Positions 3,532-29,840 of a DNA stretch of 64,000 bases are shown piece by piece. Position 1 is the first letter of the stretch. Each line of letters opens with the position of its first letter. Under the pieces are notes generated by a model. The model was not told the origin of the DNA, did not search any database, and saw nothing but the letters and a program-made list of their open reading frames with translations. The position numbers were made by a program, and so were the translations under genes. The DNA is from a virus (taxonomy: Duplodnaviria > Caudoviricetes). Where the stretch lies: positions 209 to 64,208 of IMG/VR virus record IMGVR_UViG_3300047160_035177, one strand, 5' to 3'.

Positions 3532-4589
3532 TAGCCGGCAGATTTCTTCATGATACCTAGAGCAAGAAGAAGGACCGCAGCGCCGATCGCGATCTTGACA
3601 CCGGTAGAGAAACCTACGTTGGCTTGGCTGGTATCAACTGGCGTTCCGGGCGCGGGCGCGGGCGTTGTTGCGGTTGGCGTAGGCGCCAACGTGGTGGGAA
3701 CGCTTGGGACTACGCAGCACGTGTACTGACCGCGGGCCTCGAGCGTGTACGGTGGTCCGCACGGAATCGGATTCTCGCCGGGTAGGAAGCAATTAGCCCC
3801 ACGAACGCACTTCACGCAGCGGGTGCGAGGATCGACCGCGAGATACTCGCCCGCAGGGCAAGTTGACGGCCCTTGATCGGGAGTTGACCAACCAGGTGCG
3901 CAAAGCGGATTGCAGATCTCGCAACCAGATCCGCTAGGATCTGCAGACCAACCGTAGCCAGGAATACAGGTAATGTGGCTACCGGTGGGTGGTTGCTGAT
4001 AACCCGGCGAACACGGGATCGGTGCAGGAGGGGGAGACGTTGGCGCAGGTAACGTAACTACCGTGGGTGTGAGAGTCACCGCTGGTGCTGGCGTCTTTTC
4101 GACAAGATCCGTCCAGACCATACCGGGTGAGTAAACGCCTGGTGAAACTAGAACTAGACCGCCGTCAGGGGTTGCAACGAGAAGTCCAGCCGATCGCAAA
4201 TCTTGATTTTGGCAGTTACAAGTTCTACCGGCCACGAAACCGCTGTTTGGGGTACAACCGGGTGGATCAAAGAGCGCCGGAGTCTTTGTTCCGCCTCCGA
4301 TGTACCAACCAACCGACGAACTACCTCCAACTTCAGTAACCGGAACTTGGGTGCCGCGGAACAGCGAGTCGATCTGATCAAAAGTCAGATTCGTGTCGCT
4401 GCCATAACGGCCACGTGCTATTTGGTTCTGTGTAGCGCCAACGGGATTGTAATTGCAGTTCCCACCAGGAACGATGCTGTATCGAGATCCCCCAGCCTGA
4501 ACACCTTTGGGCTGGTACTGTTGCTTCGCCTGCCCGAGCCCACGATTTAGGTACGCGAGAATGCTGTCTCGCATAGTTGGTTGAAACAT
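3531..4589 (-). CDS. Cys/Pro/Thr-rich tail-anchored virion protein
   Basis: RGLGQ; CxPGY and CxxC repeats; PT-rich stalk; C-terminal TM. Confidence 0.8.
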   Translation of the reverse strand: MFQPTMRDSILAYLNRGLGQAKQQYQPKGVQAGGSRYSIVPGGNCNYNPVGATQNQIARGRYGSDTNLTFDQIDSLFRGTQVPVTEVGGSSSVGWYIGGGTKTPALFDPPGCTPNSGFVAGRTCNCQNQDLRSAGLLVATPDGGLVLVSPGVYSPGMVWTDLVEKTPAPAVTLTPTVVTLPAPTSPPPAPIPCSPGYQQPPTGSHITCIPGYGWSADPSGSGCEICNPLCAPGWSTPDQGPSTCPAGEYLAVDPRTRCVKCVRGANCFLPGENPIPCGPPYTLEARGQYTCCVVPSVPTTLAPTPTATTPAPAPGTPVDTSQANVGFSTGVKIAIGAAVLLLALGIMKKSAG

Positions 4590-5545
4590 TACTTTTTCCC
4601 CAAGAAGTAGATGAGGCCTAGAACGACCGCGGCGCCGATACCAACCTTAGCGCCGGTCGAGAGATTCGACGTCAACGTTGAAGGTGGCGTGATCGTCGCG
4701 GGCCCCGGCGTTGGCGCTGCCGTTGGCGTTGGTGCCAAAGTCGTAGGCGTCGCGCCCGGCGTTGTAGTAACAGACGGCGGCGCTGCTTGGCCCGGTGGGA
4801 TGGGCGCGCACACAACGCAGTCGGGATACTGTGGGTGATGCACCGACTGCCAACCTTGCTGACACGTCTGCGGGCCATGCACGTACGGACGTGGGCAACC
4901 GCCGATCGCGCAGCCAACGCAGCCCGTGTCTTCCTGCACCGTGAATGTGTAGCCAGGCGGGCAACCACCGAACACCCAGCCCATCGGCGGCTTCGCATAG
5001 CCAGACGGGCAGGGCTGCGCGTTGTCGCGTAGGCACGTGTTGCAGCCGTCTGGCGACAAAATCACTTTCGGGTGATCGGCCGTGCACTGTTGCTGCCAAG
5101 TGAATGGCGGCATGCAGATGGGCGGTGGGTTGCCTGGTCCAAAGCCTGCGGGCGGCATGTTTCCCCCTGGAGGCGGAGCGCCCGGTGCGGGTGCTCCTGG
5201 TGCGCCTCCGCCCGGTGGTCTTTGTATCGGTGGATTTTCGCTGATGTTGCCGGTCGGGCATTTATAGCAATTGGGATTCGATGGATCGGCTTGGATAGCT
5301 ACATCGCAGTAAGACGTTCCGCCGAAATCGTGCCAATACGACTTTGAGAAGTAGGCGCCTTGGCAGGTAGCCGTTACACACGTGTAGCAAGTATCGTCTG
5401 CCCACTTTGGTTGCTGACCGGGAGGGCAAATGTAGGTATTCGGCTGCTTGCCCGAATTGGGATAGTCAGGCGGGCAGGATGCACCAAGACCCGCTAGCGC
5501 ACGCGCGACGTCTGATCGAATCGTTGACTGCGCTCGCTGCCTCAT
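4589..5545 (-). CDS. Cys/Pro/Thr-rich tail-anchored virion protein, likely paralog of 3531..4589
   Basis: Start set at ATGA overlap 5545; AGLGASC; CPxGY repeats; shared TTLAPTPT and STG(A/V)K(V/I)(G/A)IGAAV anchor. Confidence 0.8.
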   Translation of the reverse strand: MRQRAQSTIRSDVARALAGLGASCPPDYPNSGKQPNTYICPPGQQPKWADDTCYTCVTATCQGAYFSKSYWHDFGGTSYCDVAIQADPSNPNCYKCPTGNISENPPIQRPPGGGAPGAPAPGAPPPGGNMPPAGFGPGNPPPICMPPFTWQQQCTADHPKVILSPDGCNTCLRDNAQPCPSGYAKPPMGWVFGGCPPGYTFTVQEDTGCVGCAIGGCPRPYVHGPQTCQQGWQSVHHPQYPDCVVCAPIPPGQAAPPSVTTTPGATPTTLAPTPTAAPTPGPATITPPSTLTSNLSTGAKVGIGAAVVLGLIYFLGKK

Positions 5546-6024
5546 GACATCTCCAACGTGGGTTGAACCGGCCGCGTCCGCCGCAAGATGAGCCAAACGA
5601 GCGTAGCACCAGCGATGAGACCACCTGTGATGATGAGCGGTTTGTATTGCTCCGTGAACGGAACTGCAGAAGGTGGGAGAGGCGAAAGCGACGGACCTAC
5701 AGACTGACCCTGCATCTGCTCGAACTGTGTTCGCCAGTCAGCAAGTTTCGATCGGTATTCAAGCGTCTTCTCGTACGTCCCGTAAAAGAGGCGGGCAGTC
5801 CAATCTTGGTGGTCGCTGTAAAACTGCTTCCACTCCTGCCTCCAACGAGTCCACGCGTTGACCCACAGCGTGTTGGTTCCGGCTCCGGTGAACTGTTGAG
5901 TAATACGGATCGCAAGCTCATCTACAGCCTTGTCGACCGCGTTCATCTCATCAAGCATCTGCCCGGGCGTGACAACGATCGCGCCGAGCCCGGATGCGTA
6001 CTGTGCGGAAGCAACGCGCAGCAT
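5542..6024 (-). CDS. Helical, Trp-rich tail-anchored membrane protein
   Basis: MLRVASAQYASGLGA; WTRWRQEWKQF; C-terminal TM. Confidence 0.75.
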   Translation of the reverse strand: MLRVASAQYASGLGAIVVTPGQMLDEMNAVDKAVDELAIRITQQFTGAGTNTLWVNAWTRWRQEWKQFYSDHQDWTARLFYGTYEKTLEYRSKLADWRTQFEQMQGQSVGPSLSPLPPSAVPFTEQYKPLIITGGLIAGATLVWLILRRTRPVQPTLEMS

Positions 6025-6027
6025 CGA

Positions 6028-6486
6028 TCAATCCTGGTGATCGGCGCATTCGCCGGTTTCGCAAGCCTCGCAAGCTTCGGATGCTTCGTAGGCGTCTTCT
6101 TCTGCTTCCTCCGCGTCGTTCGCTTCGGGGTGGTCTTCTAGATAGCGCTTTACCTCGGCCATGAGGCGGGAACGGGAGCGCCGGGCTCGACGCTCACGAA
6201 GCGCAGTCTTACGTCCGTCTTTCGTTTTGGGCGAGACGTAGCGTTTCCAGAACCAGTAACCGCCAGCGAGAAGAGCGGCCGCCAACGCGAGCTTGGTCCA
6301 AGAAGATGACGATCCCTGCGTTGGAGGCGGAGATGGTTGAGGCTGCTGTTGCCCCAACGGGGAAAGTTGTGGGAGCTGGTTCGGAATCGCGATCAGACCT
6401 TGCGGCGTCTGCACCGCGGTGTAGCCGAGAGGCTGGCCTTGTGGGCCAAGAAGTTGGCCGTCAGGCCCGATCAAAATCTGATTCAC
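6028..6486 (-). CDS. Single-pass membrane protein with basic then acidic C-terminal tail
   Basis: PLGY and PLGQ; TM LALAAALLAGGYWFW; RERRARRSRSR then E/D-rich end. Confidence 0.7.
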   Translation of the reverse strand: MNQILIGPDGQLLGPQGQPLGYTAVQTPQGLIAIPNQLPQLSPLGQQQPQPSPPPTQGSSSSWTKLALAAALLAGGYWFWKRYVSPKTKDGRKTALRERRARRSRSRLMAEVKRYLEDHPEANDAEEAEEDAYEASEACEACETGECADHQD

Positions 6487-6489
6487 GGA

Positions 6490-6927
6490 TCACTCCTCTT
6501 CATCGGGCGGAGGCGACGCTTTGGGCGCTGAGGGTGCTGCTGCTTTCGGCCGTGAAAGCACGATCGCGAGCGTGACAGCACCAAGCGCGACCGCGCCGAT
6601 CACCCAAGGATTCTGGTACCAAGCTTGCGCCGGCGCCGGAATGTTCGGCGGCATCGTTGACGGCATGTTCTTGCAGATGCAGTCAGCGATCAGTTGTGGG
6701 CCACCAACGGCCGCGATCGTTGCGTACCAGGGAGCTTGCGCGGGCGTCCCTGGTGCAACGCTCGGCGTCAACGCCTGCACGATCGCAGCGCTCGCTGCAG
6801 CGCGAACTGCAGGGTTGCACCCGACCTTGGACACGACATCCTTAAGGACCGGGATGTACTGCGTCGGGATGATCGAGCAGTAGTCGAACTGCCCTAGCGC
6901 TGTAGTCGGGCGGAGCATCCGACTCAA
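6490..6927 (-). CDS. Tail-anchored membrane protein
   Basis: MLRPTTALGQ (ATG at 6918 may be the true start); TM WVIGAVALGAVTLAIVL. Confidence 0.75.
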   Translation of the reverse strand: MSRMLRPTTALGQFDYCSIIPTQYIPVLKDVVSKVGCNPAVRAAASAAIVQALTPSVAPGTPAQAPWYATIAAVGGPQLIADCICKNMPSTMPPNIPAPAQAWYQNPWVIGAVALGAVTLAIVLSRPKAAAPSAPKASPPPDEEE

Positions 6928-6964: not shown

Positions 6965-7255
6965 CTAGAGCGCGCCCGCCTTTTTTACCTTGAAAGTGCG
7001 ATCATCCGCGGCGCGTTTCTTCTCGGTTGCCCACGATCCGTTGGCAACGATCGGCGAGAAGGGAAGATTACCGACCCAGTTTTGCTCACGTTCGCGACAC
7101 TCTTTGTCGTCGCAAACGGTAGATGATCGGTACGCGTTGTGAATTCGTTTCTGCGCGTGCTTGCCGCAACGTGAGCAACGCGCGAAAGAGCTAGCGGGCA
7201 CCTCTCGTACGTTGCCGTAGCGCGTAGGCGGATTCTTTTTATGTTCAACTCTCAT
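6965..7255 (-). CDS. Small Zn-finger-like protein
   Basis: Start at ATGA overlap; CSRC...CDDKEC. Confidence 0.55.
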   Translation of the reverse strand: MRVEHKKNPPTRYGNVREVPASSFARCSRCGKHAQKRIHNAYRSSTVCDDKECREREQNWVGNLPFSPIVANGSWATEKKRAADDRTFKVKKAGAL

Positions 7256-7872
7256 CGTCGCCCCATGGGAATAGCAGCGGGTTGCCAACCGGCAACGGAC
7301 GGTCGGCGCACAGGCTCGATCGGCCATGCTTGGTAACGCGCGATCGAGTGAATCATTTCGGTCGTGTTCGGGCCGGGAACGGGATCCAGCACGATACGCC
7401 GGCCATCGCCAACTTTGACCACAGTAAAAACATGATGGAAGCCTCGTGACGCATCGGTCGTTATCGTCACGAATTCAGCGGTGTTACCGATAGCCATGAC
7501 CATCGCGGCCAAGGTGGTCGCCATCTCTTCGCAATCGACTTGACGCCCGCGCCGGCCGTCAGCGCGATCCCATGTCTCGGGTTGGAGCACCAAGTAGGGA
7601 TGTTGGGTGTATTCGGTGTGCAGCGGGTCTCGCACGTATCGAACGTTTTTTAGAACGTAGTAGTAGATCGCCGCGATCTCGGAAAGGTAGTCCTTGGCCT
7701 CGACCTGGGCGATGATCGATTCAACGAGGCGACGCAGCTCCGGAGATTGTTCTCGCGTGAGCGCGTCACGCACGAGACGACGCATGTCATCGATCGTGTA
7801 CGGAACGCCGTCGTACTCACGGGACTCGTAGCGTTTCCCCGCGGCGTACTGCGTGTGACCGAGACTCAACAC
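7252..7872 (-). CDS. Transglutaminase-like cysteine protease (putative virion maturation protease)
   Basis: VRYVRDP, DCEE (catalytic Cys), FHHVF (His), VLDP (Asp): papain-like transglutaminase core triad; own N-terminus MLSLGH. Confidence 0.8.
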   Translation of the reverse strand: MLSLGHTQYAAGKRYESREYDGVPYTIDDMRRLVRDALTREQSPELRRLVESIIAQVEAKDYLSEIAAIYYYVLKNVRYVRDPLHTEYTQHPYLVLQPETWDRADGRRGRQVDCEEMATTLAAMVMAIGNTAEFVTITTDASRGFHHVFTVVKVGDGRRIVLDPVPGPNTTEMIHSIARYQAWPIEPVRRPSVAGWQPAAIPMGRR

Positions 7873-8042
7873 GGAAGAATTCTAGCATTTCGACGTCGCC
7901 AGCGTTTCCGCGCCCACGCGCCAGCAAAGAAAAGCGCGCAGATGAAGAGCGCAAGCAGCGCGACCTTCATTGGTGCGGACAAAGAACAGTAGCACCATCG
8001 GCAAACGCAACCTATGCCGGTACCGTTGCAGTTACAGCGCAT
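7866..8042 (-). CDS. Small Cys-rich membrane protein (MRCNCNGTGIGCVCRWCYC...)
   Basis: TGATG-coupled start; GIG motif; TM then RKRWRRR. Confidence 0.6.
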   Translation of the reverse strand: MRCNCNGTGIGCVCRWCYCSLSAPMKVALLALFICALFFAGAWARKRWRRRNARILPC

Positions 8043-8449
8043 CAACCCACAACGATCGTGTAACTCCAAGTGATCGTCTGCGCGCACTTCGTGCCCTGAT
8101 CGATCATTACCGTGACCGTCATCGTTCCTTGCTGCGGAACTTGGGGTGGCGACGCGTCGAATTCGACGTAAGTTCCGCCGCCCGCAACAGTAAAGCTGCC
8201 GGGAATGTTGAAAGGGGCTCCGATCACTGGCACGAAGTGCATCACGTAGGAAGCAACGACGACTGGCTGATTGAATGTGATGTCGGACTCGTTCGGATCG
8301 ATGGCCATCGCACCGGGTAGAGGATTCCGATCCACTATGACCGCTAAGGTACAGGGGCCTTTAACCGTTGTCCTCTTCGCGCAGTTGCGGCAGGCTTGCG
8401 AAGGAACTGCGCCGCCGGCCGTACGAGCTTGTCCCGTGTTCCTAGGCAT
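8042..8449 (-). CDS. Beta-rich (Ig-like?) hypothetical protein
   Basis: Alternating hydrophobic strands; in structural operon. Confidence 0.55.
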   Translation of the reverse strand: MPRNTGQARTAGGAVPSQACRNCAKRTTVKGPCTLAVIVDRNPLPGAMAIDPNESDITFNQPVVVASYVMHFVPVIGAPFNIPGSFTVAGGGTYVEFDASPPQVPQQGTMTVTVMIDQGTKCAQTITWSYTIVVG

Positions 8450-8738
8450 GGATGCACCATCGGAGCGCGAAAGCTCCTAGACCGAGAAGTGGTTGTGTAC
8501 CGTCGGGAGTAACTACCTCACCGCAGGCTTTGCGAATCAGCTTCCCCCACTTGTCCTGTTGCTGGGCCGCAGCGATGACGCGGTCACGAACGGAAGCGCC
8601 ATCGAACATGAGCATTTCGTAGGCGGCCATCGCGTAGGAAGCGTGCACGAGCCCGTAGGCGGGAGACGTATCTTGCTGGGCCGCCATGAGGTAGCGGTCC
8701 GCTTGGCGTATGACGGCAGCGCGCTCGCGATCGGTCAC
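8442..8738 (-). CDS. Protein resembling a conserved uncharacterised Nucleocytoviricota family
   Basis: RQADRYLMAAQQDTSPAYGLVHASYA matches the RQxxRYxxAxQQDxSPxxxxxHAxYA pattern I recall from prasinovirus and mimivirus proteins; not searched. Confidence 0.6.
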   Translation of the reverse strand: MTDRERAAVIRQADRYLMAAQQDTSPAYGLVHASYAMAAYEMLMFDGASVRDRVIAAAQQQDKWGKLIRKACGEVVTPDGTQPLLGLGAFALRWCIHA

Positions 8739-8748
8739 GCCGAAGATT

Positions 8749-8913
8749 CTACGCTGCTTCGTCTTCTAGCGGCAACTCAGGTTCCGACTCATCTTCAGGT
8801 GTGGGCTCTACGGATTCGTTTTCTTGTTTTCCGAACGTTCGATCCCAGCCGTCACGGAAGGCTTGCGAGCCGCCAAGAGCGACAGAGAACGGCGTTGACT
8901 GAAGATACTTCAC
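8749..8913 (-). CDS. 54-aa acidic protein missing from the ORF track (MKYLQSTPF...FRDGWDRTFGK...)
   Basis: Own translation; GTGA overlap with upstream gene; fills the gap exactly. Confidence 0.65.
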   Translation of the reverse strand: MKYLQSTPFSVALGGSQAFRDGWDRTFGKQENESVEPTPEDESEPELPLEDEAA

Positions 8914-10964
8914 GCTTGGATTATCTGCTGCTTAAGCTCGATGAACAACTCACGCAACCACGCTTCGCCTCGTGGGGTGAGAAGAACCGAATCAGGTTCG
9001 TTCGGCCGTTGTGCACAAACCTGCCGGACGATCTCTTGGAACGCGTCCACACCCGCGTTGACGATGTCCTGAAGGTAGAGACGCGGAACCTCCGCAACTA
9101 CTTCTTTCGCGATCTCCACTGCGGGTCGACCGCTCTCGGAAGCTTCCTCGAGGCGCTTCACCGCAACGCCAAGCGCACCGATTTCACTTTCTGTTAGCTG
9201 CGTAGGCTGCACGACTTCGGGCTTCAAGGGCTCTGCAGGTGCAGGCGCGGGCGCGGAAGGCGTTGCTACCGGTGCCGGCGCGGGTGTAGGCGCGGGTGGA
9301 TACATCGGGTAGGGCTGCGGGAATGCGGGCGCTACCTGAATCGGAAAAGCGCCGGGAGGCATCATGTAAGACATCGGCATCATCGGAGCAGCAACCGGTG
9401 CGGCCGGTGCTGTCTGCCGTTGGCCGATCGCGGTCGCTACACGCTCAAACACGCCTTTCGCGGCATCAACGACGCCCGCATCCTTCATGTCTTTAGCGAG
9501 CTGACCGATCTCGGTGCGCATCTCGCCTCCACCCTTTTCGTCGTTGCCGACGCCGGGCATGCGCATCCCGAACTGACTGGCGATACCGACAACGCTTCCG
9601 ATGGTGTCCGAAACAGATTTCAGCGCATCGGGCTTCGAGGTTCGAGCTTCGACCAAGTTGCGCTGCAACTCCTCTTTCTGTTTTTCGATGTCGTGGATGC
9701 GTTGCTCCAGCATCTGAATTCGATTTTCCTGACCCTTGATCTGCTCGCGAAAGATTCCTTCCTGCTTATCTAGCTCGGTCTTCTTCGCGAGATCGTACAT
9801 TTCCTTGAGACGCTCTGTAGCGCGCCGCTCATCGCTGTTCTGATCAGATAGACGCTTGACGTCGGACTGCCACTGACTGCGGATCGATTCGATGTCGCGT
9901 TGATGTAGCTCGTCGCGGTGCTTCTGCCGCTCACTGAAGGAATCCTCGCGTTCCTTCAGCTTCTCTTGGGACGCCTCGAGCTTCTCAACAAGCTTCTCAG
10001 CTTGTTCCTTGTGCTCACGTAGAAGCTGTTTTCGCTCTTCTTCCCACCGTTCGCGATCGTGGCGCTTGTCTTGTTCCCAACGCTCACGGGCTTGATCAAG
10101 CTCGCGCCGTGCGTCGCCTTGCATCTTGGCGACCGTTTCGGCGGATGGGTTACCGTGCGCAAGCTGGATTGCCTCGATCTGTTTCAGAAGAATGTCTGTC
10201 TTTGAATCATTGGCTTCCTTGAGAACCTTCAACATCTCCCCGAATTCACGACCGTGCGGGCCGCCATCGCGTAGATCCTGGATTACCTTCAACAACATTT
10301 CGTTGTTGAGCTTCATTACCTCCGCATCGGGCGAGATGACCCCACCCACTCCTTTAATTTTATCTTTGGAAACGCCACGAAGCATCGGAGGCGCGTTGAT
10401 GGGTACTTGCCCGAACATCTTCAACGGTCGGACTTTTCCAGATTGGGCGTGGTAGCCCATGAACTTCAGTTGATACATATATCCGCCGTTCTCCTGCTCG
10501 ATTTCGGACAGGAGATCATCGGCGTTACGTACGGCCATGATCGACCATTGGCCTGAAAAACCGGACGACGGCTTACCTTCTATGAAGGTAGGCGATACAC
10601 GCCAAGCAGTTACATACGACTGCGGATCTGATTTCAGCTTATCGATCCATTCATCGATAAGTTTCGTCAGCCCCGTTTCTTCTGCAGATAGAGCCGGTGG
10701 GATTCCAGTTGTACGATTCGTAACGTCTTCGCGAAGCGCCCCGAAAATCGGGGGCCTTTTCCGTTCTGGTTTTTCTTCTTCCTCGTTGACGACGGCATCG
10801 TTGACGCTTTCTTGCTCGCCGTTCTCGTCTAGCAGTCCTGCTTGCCGCGCCTGCGCTTGAACTTCAGCGAGATCGATATCGATTTTGCGCGGACGTCCAC
10901 GACGACGTGGAAATACCGGCTCGGGTGCAGGAAGCGCTACATCATCTTGGACTTCGTCATTCAT
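8910..10964 (-). CDS. Large coiled-coil protein with N-terminal AT-hook-like motif
   Basis: PRRRGRPRK; long E/K/R/Q heptad region; Pro-rich linker. Confidence 0.75.
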   Translation of the reverse strand: MNDEVQDDVALPAPEPVFPRRRGRPRKIDIDLAEVQAQARQAGLLDENGEQESVNDAVVNEEEEKPERKRPPIFGALREDVTNRTTGIPPALSAEETGLTKLIDEWIDKLKSDPQSYVTAWRVSPTFIEGKPSSGFSGQWSIMAVRNADDLLSEIEQENGGYMYQLKFMGYHAQSGKVRPLKMFGQVPINAPPMLRGVSKDKIKGVGGVISPDAEVMKLNNEMLLKVIQDLRDGGPHGREFGEMLKVLKEANDSKTDILLKQIEAIQLAHGNPSAETVAKMQGDARRELDQARERWEQDKRHDRERWEEERKQLLREHKEQAEKLVEKLEASQEKLKEREDSFSERQKHRDELHQRDIESIRSQWQSDVKRLSDQNSDERRATERLKEMYDLAKKTELDKQEGIFREQIKGQENRIQMLEQRIHDIEKQKEELQRNLVEARTSKPDALKSVSDTIGSVVGIASQFGMRMPGVGNDEKGGGEMRTEIGQLAKDMKDAGVVDAAKGVFERVATAIGQRQTAPAAPVAAPMMPMSYMMPPGAFPIQVAPAFPQPYPMYPPAPTPAPAPVATPSAPAPAPAEPLKPEVVQPTQLTESEIGALGVAVKRLEEASESGRPAVEIAKEVVAEVPRLYLQDIVNAGVDAFQEIVRQVCAQRPNEPDSVLLTPRGEAWLRELFIELKQQIIQA

Positions 10965-19220: not shown

Positions 19221-19320
19221 CGCTCCTGGTGCTCGAGTAAAGCCTCGGTGGCTCGTGTTTACTTGAGCATTTCCTTCCCGTGTGGCCCCGAACGGGCGGA
19301 GCTTCGGGGCATTTAAAATC

Positions 19321-20823
19321 ATGATTCAACGCGATGAAAATGGGCAGGTAGTGCACAGCCGCGGACCTGGCGATTCTCCCAGTTGTGAGGGTTGCCCATG
19401 TTCCCGCGACGGCAAGCCTGGCAAGCCTGTGCGCGCATGGGGTGCCAAGGGCGGTCTAGCGATCGTCGCCGAAGGCCCCGGTAGTGAAGAGTTGATCCAG
19501 GGCTACCCACTCGTGGGTCCCACGGGTCGGCTGCTCAACGATGTTCTGCGTAAGGGAAAGATCGACCGACAACAGTGTTGGATCACCAACGCGCTTCTGT
19601 GCGCTCGTCCATCGATCGATCAGGACATGTTCCGAGCGATTGAACACTGCCGACCGCGGCTCGAAGCTGAGTTACAAACCGCGGCTCCTTCAGCGGTTCT
19701 CGCTCTTGGTGGAACGGCGGCTAAAAGCTTGAAGCTCCCGGTAACGGCGATTTCCGAAGCCCGGGGCACCGTCCAGTATTCTCCGTTCCTGCCTAACGTT
19801 CCCGTTATTACCTCACTACATCCTGCATCGCTCTTCAAAGGTGGCGCAGGTGAAGTAAAAGGCGGTGGGAAAAACAAGCAGAACGTCGACGCGCAAATGA
19901 TGTTTCTTCAGGCCGATGTCGAAAAGGCGGGAGGCGTTGCCTCCGGCGCAATTCCTGCTCAGTGGTCCGACGACATCAAGGTCATAACGTCCATCGAGGA
20001 AACCGCCGCCGAAGTTAAGGCAATCATCGAAGAAGCCCGTGCATGGTGCGCACTCGGTATCGATCTCGAGTGGAACAAAGATCGGATGATCACGTTTCTA
20101 GGCCTTGGCCACGGCGGCCGATCGATTTCGATTCCGTGGTTCCTCATGTCCGAAGAAGCGCTAAACGCTGCCGAAACGGCAATGGTCGATCCGACTCTGC
20201 CCAAGATCATCCACAATCTACAAGCGGACAAAGAGATTTGGGAACTATGCATAGGTCCCATGAATGGGAAGCTCATTGACACGATGTTGCTTCACCACGT
20301 TGGTTTTCCAGGACTCGCTCACGACTTGCAGCAGGTAGCTACTCAGTTTCTCGTCATCCCACCGTGGAAGACAGCTCACCGAGAAGAGCGGAAGAGCGTC
20401 GACAAGGCCTTGAAGCTCCGTGACCGCGAAGCAAAAAAGCTCGCCAAAAAGATGGATCGCATGAAAGCCCACGACGAACGTAACGCGCAGAAGAAGGCGG
20501 AAGCCGAAGAGCGCAAGGCTCAACGCGTAGCCGAACACGAAGCGCGCAACGCAGCCTCCGCGGCCGCAGGCCAAAAGCGCCGTGGCCGGCCGCCCAAGGT
20601 GCGTCCATCGCTAGACGCACCGCCGCCCACCCCCGTTGCCGTGGTGCCTCCAGAACCGCCTGCCGTTGCGCCCGCGGCTGAGATTCCCGTGGAGCCAACG
20701 CCAACGCCTCCTGTTCCTGACAGCCCCTTCGCAGCGCTGGCAGGAGCCCTCAAGAAGAAGCCCACCAAACGTCAACTCAACATCGTTGTTGTGGATGACG
20801 ACGGAAGCGAGCGGCCGGGATGA
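19321..20823 (+). CDS. polA: Split DNA polymerase A, N-terminal chain: family-4 uracil-DNA glycosylase-like domain plus 3'-5' exonuclease motifs I and II
   Basis: CEGCPC, AEGPGSEE, LVGPTG, TNALLC, HPASL; IDLEW (ExoI), HNLQAD (ExoII); charged and Pro-rich tail. Confidence 0.8.
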   Translation: MIQRDENGQVVHSRGPGDSPSCEGCPCSRDGKPGKPVRAWGAKGGLAIVAEGPGSEELIQGYPLVGPTGRLLNDVLRKGKIDRQQCWITNALLCARPSIDQDMFRAIEHCRPRLEAELQTAAPSAVLALGGTAAKSLKLPVTAISEARGTVQYSPFLPNVPVITSLHPASLFKGGAGEVKGGGKNKQNVDAQMMFLQADVEKAGGVASGAIPAQWSDDIKVITSIEETAAEVKAIIEEARAWCALGIDLEWNKDRMITFLGLGHGGRSISIPWFLMSEEALNAAETAMVDPTLPKIIHNLQADKEIWELCIGPMNGKLIDTMLLHHVGFPGLAHDLQQVATQFLVIPPWKTAHREERKSVDKALKLRDREAKKLAKKMDRMKAHDERNAQKKAEAEERKAQRVAEHEARNAASAAAGQKRRGRPPKVRPSLDAPPPTPVAVVPPEPPAVAPAAEIPVEPTPTPPVPDSPFAALAGALKKKPTKRQLNIVVVDDDGSERPG

Positions 20824-21635
20824 AAGCTCGGCCGTTTCTGAAGTGGGCGGGCGGCAAGAAACAGCTTCTACCTGAGTTGTTGAAGCGCGTTCAGATGAAG
20901 TCATATAGGACCTACTACGAACCGTTCTTAGGTGGTGGTGCTCTCTTCTTCGCGCTCGCGCCGAATCGAGCCGTGATCTGTGATGCGAATCTGCGTTTGA
21001 TTCAAACGTACAAAGCGGTGCGTGACTCGGTTGATCAAGTGATCGATATTCTTCGTTGGCATCAAGATCAGCATTCCGAAGAGCATTTCAAAGCAATGCG
21101 AAATATCGATGTAGATAACAAAGATAAGATCGCATGCGCCGGCTGGATGATTTATCTCAACAAGACCGGCTACAACGGTCTATATCGCGTCAACTCCAAG
21201 GGTCATTTCAATGTGCCCTTCGGCCGATACGCGAACCCCAAGATTCTGGATGAAGAGAACTTGCGTGCTTGCTCGGAGCTTCTCGGCCGCGCTGCGATTC
21301 GATGCCAAGATTTCCGAGAGAGCTTAGAGAATCCTATCGGCGGCGACTTCGTCTATCTAGATCCGCCCTACGTTCCCATCTCGGAAACATCTTCGTTCAC
21401 GTCGTACACCGCAGAAAAGTTCACCCACGAAGATCAGAAGGATCTAGCGGCCTACGCCGCGGAGCTGAAATCCCGCGGTGTCTCGGTGCTCCTCTCTAAC
21501 TCCTCGGCACCGTCCGTGACTGAAGATCTCTATCCATCCTTCAAGATCGAGAAAGTTAAAGGCCGTCGATCTATCAACTCCAAAGCCTCGAAACGCGGTC
21601 CCATCGATGAGTATCTGATCTCCACGGAGACGTAA
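20820..21635 (+). CDS. dam: DNA adenine methyltransferase (Dam/D12 class)
   Basis: FLKWAGGK, YYEPFLGGGALFF, VYLDPPY. Confidence 0.92.
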   Translation: MKARPFLKWAGGKKQLLPELLKRVQMKSYRTYYEPFLGGGALFFALAPNRAVICDANLRLIQTYKAVRDSVDQVIDILRWHQDQHSEEHFKAMRNIDVDNKDKIACAGWMIYLNKTGYNGLYRVNSKGHFNVPFGRYANPKILDEENLRACSELLGRAAIRCQDFRESLENPIGGDFVYLDPPYVPISETSSFTSYTAEKFTHEDQKDLAAYAAELKSRGVSVLLSNSSAPSVTEDLYPSFKIEKVKGRRSINSKASKRGPIDEYLISTET

Positions 21636-23206
21636 TGAAAATCTCGCCCGACATCATGAATGAAGGCGTTTACAACGCCCGCGACGTTCTCAGCACATGT
21701 CGTGTCTACCCGTTTCTTATCGATGCGGTCGAGCGCAGCGGCTGCACACAGGTCTACGAAGTTGACGAGCAGATGGCCCACCTTGCCCTGCAGATGACGC
21801 GCGTCGGTATGCCCGTATCTGCTTCGGAGCGGAAGCGGGCAGGCGATCACCTGCGAGAGCTTCGAGATCAAGCCGCCACCGATCTTGAAATAACGATGGA
21901 ATTGAATTGGGAAAGCTTCCTAACTTGGGTCGCCAAGCTTCAAGCCTCCAAGATTCGTAAGAACGAGCCCGCGTTGGGAACACCGCAGTTCGAAGGCGGT
22001 CCCGCACATTCGGAAGAAACGTCCTTCTACGCGCGGGTGGAAATTCGAAAAGAGCAGTTTCGAAAACTCATCGAGAAGCACGGTTGGGCGAAGAAGGGCT
22101 TGAACCTCGGCGCCAAGATTCAACAAGCCGCGTTGTTGCGCGCCTCGGGTGTTCCGCTCACGAAGACGACCCTGAAGAGCGCAATCCCCAAGGTCGACAA
22201 AGAAGTCCTCGAAGACATGCGGCAGTTTCCCGCGGCCAAGGCCTTCTTGCAGTGGTCTCTTACCTCCGCCGCGCTCCGCAACTTCGTGGACAATCTCGAT
22301 CTAGACGAAAACGGATTCATGCATCCGGAATGGGAGATCCACAAGATCTCCGGCCGCTGGGGTAGCAAACCGAACGTGCAGAACTGGAGCAAGCGCGCTG
22401 GGGGAGGCGTCGAGAATCTACGAAAGATGATCGTCGCCCCTGACGGTTACACCTTCGTTGGCGCTGATCAGAAGCAACTTGAAGCGCGGCTCATTGCTGC
22501 TGACTCCGGTGATCCATTCCTCAAAGGTGTCTTCGAACGCAACGAAGATATCCACTCTGCCATGGCCGGAGTTGCCTTCCCGACTGCATGGCCCAAGGCG
22601 GCCGAGACCTATATCGCTCACAAGAAAACGAAATGCGGGCCAAGTGATCTAGAGCCCAAGTGCGATATGTGCAAGCAACGGGACAAGATCCGCGATCTCA
22701 CCAAGCGCCTCGAATACGGCGGCTTCTACGGTGGTACCGATCAGACCCTGCACGAATCTTGCGTGAAAGATTTCCCCGAGCTTAAGCGGGGAGATGTCGT
22801 CAACTTCCTCGCCAACTTCAACAAGCAGATGCCTCGCGTTATGGCGTGGCGCGTAGATATCCTCGAGCAAGCCACCAAGGAAGGCGAGATCCGCTCGCCT
22901 ATACTAGGCCGTCGAGAATGCTTCCCGATGGGTCGTGTAGAGCCAACCGTGGCCTACAATTTCAGGCCGCAGTCCGGTGGCGCTGATCTCTGGGATCTCG
23001 GGGCGATCGAATTCTGTAAACGTTGGGATCAAAGAACGTGGGATGCCCGGATCTGCCACAACGGCCACGACTCAGTCCTGATCTTGTGCCGAGAAGACGT
23101 AGCGCCAAAGGTCGTCGAAGATGTCCACGCTTGTTGGGAACGAGATTGGAACGGCGTTCAGTTCCTCATGGATACTAAGGTAGGCAAAAGCTGGGCGGAC
23201 GTTTAA
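21635..23206 (+). CDS. polA: Split DNA polymerase A, C-terminal chain: ExoIII plus polymerase domain
   Basis: YNARD (ExoIII); ADQKQLEAR (motif A); KRLEYGGFYG (motif B); HDSV (motif C). Confidence 0.9.
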   Translation: MKISPDIMNEGVYNARDVLSTCRVYPFLIDAVERSGCTQVYEVDEQMAHLALQMTRVGMPVSASERKRAGDHLRELRDQAATDLEITMELNWESFLTWVAKLQASKIRKNEPALGTPQFEGGPAHSEETSFYARVEIRKEQFRKLIEKHGWAKKGLNLGAKIQQAALLRASGVPLTKTTLKSAIPKVDKEVLEDMRQFPAAKAFLQWSLTSAALRNFVDNLDLDENGFMHPEWEIHKISGRWGSKPNVQNWSKRAGGGVENLRKMIVAPDGYTFVGADQKQLEARLIAADSGDPFLKGVFERNEDIHSAMAGVAFPTAWPKAAETYIAHKKTKCGPSDLEPKCDMCKQRDKIRDLTKRLEYGGFYGGTDQTLHESCVKDFPELKRGDVVNFLANFNKQMPRVMAWRVDILEQATKEGEIRSPILGRRECFPMGRVEPTVAYNFRPQSGGADLWDLGAIEFCKRWDQRTWDARICHNGHDSVLILCREDVAPKVVEDVHACWERDWNGVQFLMDTKVGKSWADV

Positions 23207-28520: not shown

Positions 28521-29156
28521 TTATACAACGGCCGTCAAGCCTCGCACGAGACGGAGTTTTTCCAGCACCTTCGCCTCGATCTGCCGCGCTCGTTCGCGAG
28601 AGACGTCCCACGCATCGCTGAACGTCTTGAGGGTAGATGGATCATCATGAAGAAGCCGACCGTATAGAATTTCGCGCTCTCGACTGTTAAGCGTCGTCGC
28701 GGCGATCGCCCGACGAAGCCAAGCAACCCGTTCGAAGCCGATCAACGTGCTTTCTGCGCTCGGTTGATGATAGTCCACCAAGTCACAATCACGTTCGTCG
28801 TCATCGAGCGGTACATTAAGCCGACTGCGAAAATTGCGTTTTCGTATCGCCTCGCTGATCGCGCCTTTGATCCAGAGTTGAGCGTAGGTCGAAAACCGTA
28901 CGCCCCGTTCCGGATCGAATCTGTCCGCCGCCTCGAGAAGCCCAAGATTCCCTTCTTGGATCAGATCAGGGTCGAAACCACCGCAGAACTGCAGCGCTTC
29001 GTGCAGAACAAACTTTAAGTTCGCGGTGATGAGCGCATCCCGGGCGCGTTTGCATCCGGCTCGTGCGCGCCGCGCGATCTCGATTTCAGTCTCGCGATCG
29101 ACTACCTGGGCGTGTGCATTGAGATCCCGTGAATAGGCTTGGGAAAGCTTTTCCAT
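28521..29156 (-). CDS. RpoD/RpoH-like sigma70 factor
   Basis: LITANLKFV, DLIQEGNLGLLEAADRFDPERGVRFSTYAQLWI, VSRERARQIE; start reassigned to MEKL. Confidence 0.9.
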   Translation of the reverse strand: MEKLSQAYSRDLNAHAQVVDRETEIEIARRARAGCKRARDALITANLKFVLHEALQFCGGFDPDLIQEGNLGLLEAADRFDPERGVRFSTYAQLWIKGAISEAIRKRNFRSRLNVPLDDDERDCDLVDYHQPSAESTLIGFERVAWLRRAIAATTLNSREREILYGRLLHDDPSTLKTFSDAWDVSRERARQIEAKVLEKLRLVRGLTAVV

Positions 29157-29243
29157 GCGAGCAAGATAAACGACGATCGATTTTTGGCAAAGAAAAACTG
29201 TTGAACGAGTTATACAGACCGTGGTACGTGATAGAATCCTCGC

Positions 29244-29840
29244 ATGACCATTACGGATCTCCTTCTTCTCGGCGGAGCCGGGTTTCTCGGCTGGAAGATC
29301 TATGAGGCTGTGCAGGATCAGCAAAGCCAGAAGACCGAAGCACAAGGGATGCCCGTCTACATGCCCCTCGTCGCCTCGGCCGCCGGCACCGCGGGAATCC
29401 CGACGTGGGCGCTCGCTGCCATCGTCAACACGGAAAGCTCTTGGGACAACTCCCCGCGCGAGAAGAGCTGCTCTGATGGATGCTCGGTCCCGTGTCGCGC
29501 TTCGTGCCCACCCACATGCGCGATCGGTCTAGCGCAACTCAAAGCCAAATACTTCGCGCCTGGAGGCGACGCTACCGCGCTGTGCGACCCCGCGACGAAC
29601 CTCCGGATCGCGGCCCAGCATCTCCGCGATCTTTATGCCCACTTCAAGGACTGGAACATTGCCTTCGTGGCCTACAACCAAGGCACGGGCACTGTAGATA
29701 GCGCGATCAAGGCTGGGAAAGACCCCATCGCGCTCAACTCTTCCTACGTCAGCAAGACCGTCTCGGCTGCCCAACGCTACGGCGCCGGTAGCGCCCTAGC
29801 TGGTAGTTTGCGTCTTCCTTCACTGTTCAGGGTCGCATGA
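29244..29840 (+). CDS. Membrane-anchored lytic transglycosylase (SLT family)
   Basis: N-terminal hydrophobic anchor; AIVNTESS, GLAQL, AYNQG. Confidence 0.85.
   Translation: MTITDLLLLGGAGFLGWKIYEAVQDQQSQKTEAQGMPVYMPLVASAAGTAGIPTWALAAIVNTESSWDNSPREKSCSDGCSVPCRASCPPTCAIGLAQLKAKYFAPGGDATALCDPATNLRIAAQHLRDLYAHFKDWNIAFVAYNQGTGTVDSAIKAGKDPIALNSSYVSKTVSAAQRYGAGSALAGSLRLPSLFRVA

Follow-up and report, generated by a model that had tools for sequence, protein, structure and literature searches.

Gene and protein at the locus

The gene analysed here lies at positions 8442 to 8738 on the minus strand of a 64,000-nucleotide stretch of DNA, called the window below, which covers nearly the whole of an IMG/VR record (IMGVR_UViG_3300047160_035177) that is 64,208 bp long and bears direct terminal repeats. 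An earlier reading of this stretch without database searches (the sequence-only reading) had likened the pattern of the gene product to that of small conserved proteins of prasinoviruses and mimiviruses. The open reading frame (ORF) and its motif are real: the gene encodes a protein of 98 amino acids (aa), the target, in which both strings quoted by that reading are present, and the motif is its most conserved part. The target very probably shares true homology with an abundant family of giant-virus proteins, as judged from profile and structure comparisons. The features of the locus are collected in Table 1.

Table 1. Positions in the window of the target gene, of parts of its product and of neighbouring genes
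Feature	Position	Strand	Remarks and basis
Target gene	8442..8738	minus	GTG start, stop 8442-8444, 98 aa; ORF list
Predicted three-helix-bundle domain, residues 3-71	8526..8732	minus	AlphaFold2 (AF2) model, alignments, hhalign span to giant-virus family
Core motif quoted by the sequence-only reading, residues 11-43	8610..8708	minus	R-Q-x2-R-Y ... Q-D-x2-P-x5-H-A-S-Y-A; from sequence
Second quoted string, residues 59-72	8523..8564	minus	From sequence
Low-confidence C-terminal tail, residues 72-98	8445..8525	minus	AF2 predicted local distance difference test (pLDDT), alignments
Internal ATG (Met18), start of public gene call	8685..8687	minus	P0001, 81 aa, identical from residue 18
Downstream gene, 135 aa, no Pfam or PHROG match	8042..8449	minus	ORF list
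Upstream gene, 54 aa, no Pfam or PHROG match	8749..8913	minus	Ends 10 nucleotides (nt) before target start
Transglutaminase-like (papain-clan) protein	7252..7872	minus	Pfam PF01841, E 3.8e-5, 24.4 bits versus cut-off of 23
Coiled-coil-rich protein, 684 aa, upstream of target, same direction	8910..10964	minus	PHROG 167, E 3.5e-5; no Pfam match

The three-helix domain of the target bears conserved Q12, R15, Y16, A19, Q22, D23, P26 and H32, and further conserved positions are A33, S34, Y35, A36, A57, Q61, D62 and W64. Judged from the alignments, the quoted pattern is far beyond chance and marks the conserved core of a family. A G-L-G-A that the sequence-only reading had placed at the C-terminus is present at residues 86-89 (nt 8472-8483), 9 residues short of that end. 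It lies in a tail with a semi-conserved Cys72 and a G-L-G-[AY]-W-like motif, of which the latter is common to the closest relatives only. A regular-expression scan for the extended tail motif (G-L-G...W...C), which sought a shared cleavage or docking signal, did not find it in other ORFs of the window.

The public gene call for this locus (P0001) begins at the internal ATG and thus lacks part of helix 1. Because relatives conserve residues upstream of Met18, in helix 1, the longer GTG form is by this comparison the right one, and the 81-aa call is truncated. Two homologues (P0002 and P0003) run through helix 1.

Immediate relatives

Standard searches return about 25 relatives, which are unnamed metagenomic proteins with the N-terminal helix conserved. 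By phmmer, 19 matches were obtained against 1.84 billion representatives, and about 15 of these are true relatives (69-220 aa, all unnamed). Alignments of the family give Q22, H32, A33, Y35, A36, A57 and Q61 as invariant and Q12, R15, Y16, L17, A19, D23, P26, G29, S34, E41, L43, G47 and W64 as nearly so. Two members, P0004 and P0005, are natural tandem duplications of the domain, and P0020, P0021 and P0023 (L001:10001-10894) have long C-terminal extensions. These three proteins end in one or two copies of Gly-[Ala/Cys]-Trp-Pro...Gly-Phe...Arg-Pro, of which the G-L-G-[AY]-W in the tail of the target and its closest relatives is a shorter echo.

The family is nearly virus-only: a scan of 185,579 species genomes, which used a stricter back-translated DNA pattern, gave one true match (locus L128, on a 108-kb contig). 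No match to the target was found in PHROGs or, by phmmer, in PDB sequences, and tblastn against 50,697 phage records gave only a chance match of 17 residues. A profile search of all PDB chain sequences likewise gave no significant match, with one chain, 3iuk, at E 0.25. The sole Pfam model to register the target at all is VG15 (PF25310), with E 0.017 and 15.7 bits versus a 26-bit cut-off; one of 15 family members matches it, and we took the match as chance. Readings as HEPN-like (R-x4-6-H), phospholipase-A2-like (H-D-x2-Y) or chorismate-mutase-like proteins were considered in view of the conserved residues and set aside because the motifs and spacings do not seem to fit those families.

Homology with a giant-virus family

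The giant-virus pattern quoted by the sequence-only reading exists. Scanning IMG/VR with the back-translated motif Q-D-x2-P-x5-H-A-x-Y-A gave at least 120 loci, and all those listed encode one family of proteins of about 122 aa. These proteins begin with an N-terminal hydrophobic helix, followed by R-Q-x2-R-Y, the scanned block (here Q-D-x2-P-x5-H-A-N-Y-A), an insert of about 10 residues, the helix-3 Q-D, a Cys and a conserved tail. The hydrophobic helix is found in 105 of 108 giant-virus proteins versus none of the 22 short forms, among which is the target. A capsid gene of the nucleocytoplasmic large DNA viruses (NCLDV; PF04451) is present on all six contigs tested, mostly in several copies, and 7 of 120 listed loci are on contigs named as giant-virus metagenome-assembled genomes (GVMAG). 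The multiple copies agree with the report of up to eight capsid paralogues in prasinoviruses (PMC5371798).

A profile search extends the giant-virus family to 2002 clusters at 90 % identity. Its named members are gp183 of Micromonas pusilla virus SP1 (MpV-SP1; YP_009665028.1 / AET84955.1) and OtV6_234 of Ostreococcus tauri virus RT-2011 (AFC35142.1). The family has no Pfam entry, and no paper was retrieved from the literature under the two prasinovirus locus tags. In prasinoviruses, the gene is flanked by genes for a RING-finger protein and a glycosyltransferase, and genes for topoisomerase II and capsid proteins lie farther upstream. One giant-virus-type member, P0172 (MDA9846614.1), comes from a 47.7-kb contig whose deposited source is 'Flavobacteriaceae bacterium'; probably, binning has here placed a giant-virus contig in a bacterial metagenome-assembled genome (MAG).

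Several lines of evidence connect the two families. In hhalign, the phage family (A1) and the giant-virus family (A3) align over 79 columns with a probability of 97.6 % and an E-value of 4.3e-12. Because the giant-virus set was retrieved with a motif of the query family, a shuffle control was run in which the 7 selected motif residues were kept; the native median is 45.7 bits versus 10.3 bits for shuffled sequences, whose maximum over 300 shuffles is 23.6 bits. The selection motif alone is insufficient to account for the profile score. In the opposite direction, phage proteins, whose selection did not involve the motif, score 18-41 bits with the giant-virus profile, and the target scores 29.3 bits. 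Outside the motif used for retrieval, R-Q-x2-R-[YW], several small-residue positions, Gly47, the helix-3 Q-D and the next Cys also align, and the block R-Q-x2-R-[YW]-x2-A-x2-Q-D-x2-P-x5-H-A-[SN]-Y-A is found column for column in target residues 11-36 (A4). An Atlas structure search, which is independent of the motif, places at ranks 1-3 clusters of 121-125 aa, mostly from Nucleocytoviricota, with TM scores of 0.64-0.69.

The alternative is that two families of small helical bundles, unrelated to each other, look alike through convergence or by chance. Three-helix bundles are common and recur widely, and the PDB matches of the target (MIT-like and TPR-like units, Z about 10) are at the level expected of any helical bundle. 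Single-sequence similarity is weak (28.6 bits, about 29 % identity) and would not be significant database-wide, which is why phmmer missed the giant-virus proteins; pairwise identities are about 20-29 %, and about 25-29 % for the target. Moreover, since the giant-virus set was fished with the query motif, part of the profile score arises by construction, and masking the 7 motif residues reduces the best score to 18.9 bits. These points weigh against the homology. However, the profile match spans the whole domain, conserved blocks outside the fishing motif align as well, none of the motif-preserving shuffles approaches the native median, and the motif-independent structure search agrees. In addition, two intermediate members, L116 and L128, score at median values of 37-39 bits against giant-virus proteins and at E 1e-7 against the target. 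Chance or convergence is thus very unlikely.

The prasinovirus relatives proposed by the sequence-only reading are therefore borne out by profile, control and structure search alike, by the named members and by the capsid genes on their contigs. Membership of the giant-virus family is correct as to the homologous domain and incorrect as to overall architecture, in that the target has neither anchor nor insert. The mimivirus link is not supported, the only evidence being a Foldseek match to a protein of Klosneuvirus KNV1 that is not significant (E 0.013, 19 % identity).

Predicted structure and dimer

AF2, run with 22 sequences, models the target with a mean pLDDT of 90.1 and helices at residues 3-22, 26-45 and 51-71; over the last 20 residues, the pLDDT is 51-63. 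The fold is confidently predicted to be a three-helix bundle. Foldseek against the PDB gives no match with E <= 0.001, and a PDB and VIA-wide comparison finds generic helical bundles only. The best matches in BFVD are giant-virus proteins, although these are not significant (E 0.013-0.09).

Prediction of a homodimer yields a median score of 0.66, versus 0.02 for the best of three controls. The dimer runs have at least 65 % of contacts in common, with a partner pLDDT of at least 72. The mark used for a dimer is reached by 20 of 30 solved same-chain pairs and by 1 of 23 solved single chains, a calibration that is rough here because a custom alignment was used. Helices 2 and 3 form the predicted interface, to which P26, S34, Y35, Q61 and the region around C72 belong. 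The tandem duplicates P0004 and P0005 would fit a two-domain unit, which supports a dimer without showing one.

A third branch and the genomic context

A third set of family members carries the membrane helix in a bacterial-type setting. An N-terminal membrane helix is present in the forms encoded at loci L004, L116 and L128, the last two of which contain the insert as well. L116 is found in an 89-kb IMG/VR record, and L128 is on its 108-kb contig in a MAG assigned to Vicinamibacterales (Acidobacteriota). A metagenome scan added 26 anchored soil-type members (on contigs of up to 150 kb), 2 short forms, 5 giant-virus forms and 5 chance matches. The contigs of the anchored soil and sediment branch measure 90-150 kb.

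In the phylogenetic tree, the giant-virus clade has support of 100/99, and the short forms are set apart by a branch with support of 94/89. The anchored bacterial-type forms are located between the short and the giant-virus forms. The tree is unrooted and gives no direction of transfer.

No neighbouring gene is conserved across the phage-type loci, and the prasinovirus context is different again. For this reason the gene appears, by its gene neighbourhoods, to behave as a single-gene cassette. In L003, a 22.5-kb Logan contig, it is adjacent to a HEPN/nucleotidyltransferase pair, and in L116 and L128 it is near a Dam methylase. The copy next to the HEPN/nucleotidyltransferase pair is tandem-duplicated, and L003 shares five genes, RadC included, with the 52-56 kb region of the window at 33-49 % identity.

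Within the soil-type branch, the family gene is divergently paired with one conserved gene at 17 anchored loci. The paired gene encodes a protein whose N-terminal domain is peptidoglycan-binding-like and which also has a membrane helix at the C-terminal end; Pfam PG_binding_1/3 is matched by five of five representatives at E 0.001-0.03, all below threshold but consistent. Examples are L116:4407-4990 (minus), L128:1189-1905 (plus), L145:6461-6985 (plus) and L177:1877-2467 (minus). The paired product has no signal peptide, and basic residues follow its C-terminal helix, an odd topology for a wall-binding protein.

The 64-kb element and related records

Genes recognised in the window encode a DUF3987 primase-helicase, an SNF2 helicase, a PD-(D/E)XK nuclease, a Sak4-like ATPase, a uracil-DNA glycosylase (UDG)-exonuclease, a Dam methylase, DNA polymerase A, a tyrosine integrase, ParB, a sigma-70 factor, RadC, glycosyltransferases and collagen-repeat proteins. 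On this content, the element is likely a virus of bacteria. At 19282-23206 (plus), three ORFs lie back to back, one for UDG and a 3'-5' exonuclease, one for a complete Dam (D12) methylase and one for DNA polymerase A, and the polymerase looks split by the methylase gene. The sigma-70 family factor, the element's own, is encoded at 28521-29345 (minus) and has regions 2 and 4; it has a partial match in record G005 (47 % over 49 aa).

Genes for a particle were sought by several routes. PHROGs and Pfam searches of all ORFs of at least 350 aa found no terminase, portal, HK97 capsid or jelly-roll or double-jelly-roll capsid in the record, and neither six-frame family searches nor tblastn against the 50,697 phage records found any of these. 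No packaging-type P-loop is present in the record, and the NCLDV hallmarks PF04451, PF16903 and PF04665 have no match there. The only matches of a related kind are the collagen-repeat 'fibre-like' proteins, 28-39 kb from the target. A 358-aa capsid candidate was modelled by AF2 with a pLDDT of 37.

The record that holds the window is one of three terminal-repeat records with the family; the others are G005 (L131-L135), which contains L116, and G006 (L136-L140), and the three measure 64, 89 and 96 kb. None has a terminase, portal, HK97 capsid or NCLDV/PRD1-type capsid recognisable by Pfam, PHROGs or tblastn. G005 and the window have in common a colinear replication module, at 23-28 % identity, and therefore the carriers are distantly related elements. 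These three records may represent a new virus lineage or plasmid-like circular elements. G006 encodes a 575-aa protein (L137:12608-14335, plus) with a HerA/FtsK-like P-loop (PF01935, E 1e-7), which PHROGs labels 'terminase large subunit' (phrog_2666, E 5e-14). No other packaging-type ATPase was seen in the three records, and the window has no homologue of this one.

Neighbouring genes and alternative roles

The start of the downstream 135-aa gene overlaps the target stop by 8 nt, an arrangement that suggests translational coupling. In the transglutaminase-like protein that follows, a D-C-E-E-M-A block resembles what we take to be the catalytic Cys motif of that group. The weak tape-measure-like PHROG 167 match of the upstream 684-aa protein falls in a coiled-coil stretch and is probably compositional. 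Farther downstream, each of four consecutive genes at 4589-6927 (minus) has a product with one hydrophobic helix, which in most cases is at or close to the C-terminus; one product is rich in Cys and Pro, and none has a database match. In two distant carriers, the family gene is followed within about 2 kb by a gene for a papain-clan protein, which is transglutaminase-like in the window and peptidase C1-like in L116 (L116:7187-8050, plus). G006 contains a homologue of the window's transglutaminase-like protein 12.5 kb from its family gene.

The sequence-only reading had assigned the gene to a structural operon, next to the protease, and saw in it, if real, a link from this virus's morphogenesis module to eukaryotic giant viruses. 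The supposed protease is the transglutaminase-like gene, which is two genes away, and the claim of a structural operon or morphogenesis module is not supported: the record has no recognisable terminase, portal or capsid gene, and the target gene has no conserved neighbours across relatives. A virion or morphogenesis component, such as a factor linking capsid and membrane that was inherited in a structural module shared with giant viruses, is nonetheless a role to be weighed. The gene belongs to a long one-directional run that includes several predicted membrane proteins, the 684-aa coiled-coil protein and the transglutaminase-like putative protease, and it is apparently coupled in translation to the next gene. 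The closest relatives appear to keep neighbours of equal size, although this is judged from gene sizes only. Many inner-membrane virion proteins of giant viruses are membrane-anchored, as are the family members of the giant-virus and soil branches. However, with no capsid, portal, terminase or packaging ATPase recognisable in the record, there is no definable structural module; no neighbour is conserved between branches, and the other contexts are the HEPN/nucleotidyltransferase pair and the Dam methylase described above. The family is also sporadic among related elements, and no solved protein, virion proteins included, is detectably related to it by the profile and Foldseek searches of the PDB. 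A virion role is thus unlikely.

Alternately, the protein might be a cell-envelope or lysis factor, for example, a regulator or partner of wall-acting membrane proteins. Anchored forms would then cooperate with a peptidoglycan-binding membrane protein, and the window copy would be a soluble regulator. The divergent pairing with a gene for a peptidoglycan-binding-like membrane protein at the 17 soil-type loci is suggestive of such a role, as are the papain-clan protein and three small membrane proteins encoded within 2.5 kb after the target and the papain-family peptidase 1.7 kb downstream in L116. However, the window has no homologue of the paired gene, the Pfam matches to peptidoglycan-binding domains are all sub-threshold, and no endolysin catalytic domain was identified beside the gene. 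Because prasinovirus hosts lack peptidoglycan, the function common to the family cannot be peptidoglycan-based; nor can it depend on a conserved partner gene. An envelope or lysis role therefore seems improbable.

Proposed role and significance

In the reading that we favour, the target is a small all-helical protein, with a three-helix bundle of about 70 residues followed by a floppy tail, that most likely forms a symmetric homodimer packed through helices 2 and 3. The family would have three branches of common descent: short soluble forms in a few bacterial virus-like elements, including the target; N-terminally anchored forms from soil and sediment contigs; and the very abundant anchored forms of about 122 aa in prasinoviruses and on other giant-virus contigs. 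The gene would have moved between bacterial and algal viruses as a cassette without a conserved partner. The conserved Gln-Asp at the turn between helices 1 and 2, the His and Tyr of helix 2 and the Gln-Asp of helix 3 may be partly at the dimer interface and partly in the bundle core. This conserved polar cluster might be a binding site or a structural hydrogen-bond network at the cytoplasmic face of a membrane, an orientation suggested by the basic residues that follow the anchor helix in giant-virus forms. The protein would then be a membrane-proximal adaptor, whose anchor the window copy would have lost.

Taken as a whole, this reading (a real gene, a three-branch virus family, a probable dimer, a cassette and an accessory role) is probable. 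The specific role of accessory adaptor is favoured over the virion and envelope roles, but it is put forward tentatively. Apart from the weaknesses of the sequence comparison already given, three considerations count against the reading: the dimer is a prediction only; the status of the element as a bacterial virus rests on gene content, with no particle genes found; and function, binding site and membrane-face topology are all inferred, for a family with no relative of known function.

A more far-reaching possibility is that the family is an anciently inherited membrane-associated component common to giant viruses and to large bacterial viruses (64-150 kb) of an as yet unrecognised lineage. 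Members of this lineage would lack terminase, portal and HK97 capsid; one would have a HerA/FtsK-type ATPase, and many would have clustered small membrane proteins. If so, the elements would be membrane-containing bacterial viruses near the ancestral stock of giant viruses, and the protein would be a rare marker that links them. We regard this as highly improbable.

Among the viruses that infect marine picoalgae, prasinoviruses are some of the most abundant, and, to our knowledge, most of their conserved small genes have no assigned function or relatives. The results place gp183/OtV6_234 in a wider virus-only family that is also present in bacterial virus-like elements, which implies that gene flow or a common ancestry links viruses of two domains. 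That phages and giant viruses share genes is in itself known. Neither of the two families had been described previously, the cross-domain link between a bacterial virus-like element and giant viruses appears to be new, and its reading in terms of morphogenesis is unproven. The anchor-free, soluble variants should be easier to express, crystallise and assay than the membrane-bound proteins of algal viruses, and the invariant residues for mutation are now defined. The carrier elements, which have no recognisable particle genes, are worth study themselves.

Comparison with known systems

MIT domains and single TPR-like units (2w2u, 2v6x, 4wng) are, like the model of the target, up-down-up three-helix bundles of similar size. 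Their VIA Z values of 9.7-10.1 (root-mean-square deviation 1.4-3.0 A over 63-72 residues) are within the range of unrelated helical bundles. Identity is 6-11 %, no motifs are in common, and the Foldseek E-value is about 1, so the resemblance is one of fold only.

The soil-type proteins (L116, L128 and the 26 metagenome loci) have the same domain as the target and occur in a bacterial-type setting with a Dam methylase and a sigma factor. In contrast to the window protein, they possess a membrane helix, an insert like that of the giant-virus proteins and the paired gene for a peptidoglycan-binding-like protein.

The gp183/OtV6_234 family differs from the window protein by its N-terminal membrane helix, by the insert of about 10 residues between helices 2 and 3, and by a C-P-x-F...D-x-Y-L tail, of which only the Cys aligns in the window protein. 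Its genomes have NCLDV capsid genes, whereas the 64-kb record has no match to them. The two families are alike in that neither has a cellular homologue or an assigned function. They are alike, too, in the homologous three-helix domain itself, which in both carries R-Q-x2-R-[YW], Q-D-x2-P-x5-H-A-[SN]-Y-A, the helix-3 Q-[DE] and the Cys that follows it.

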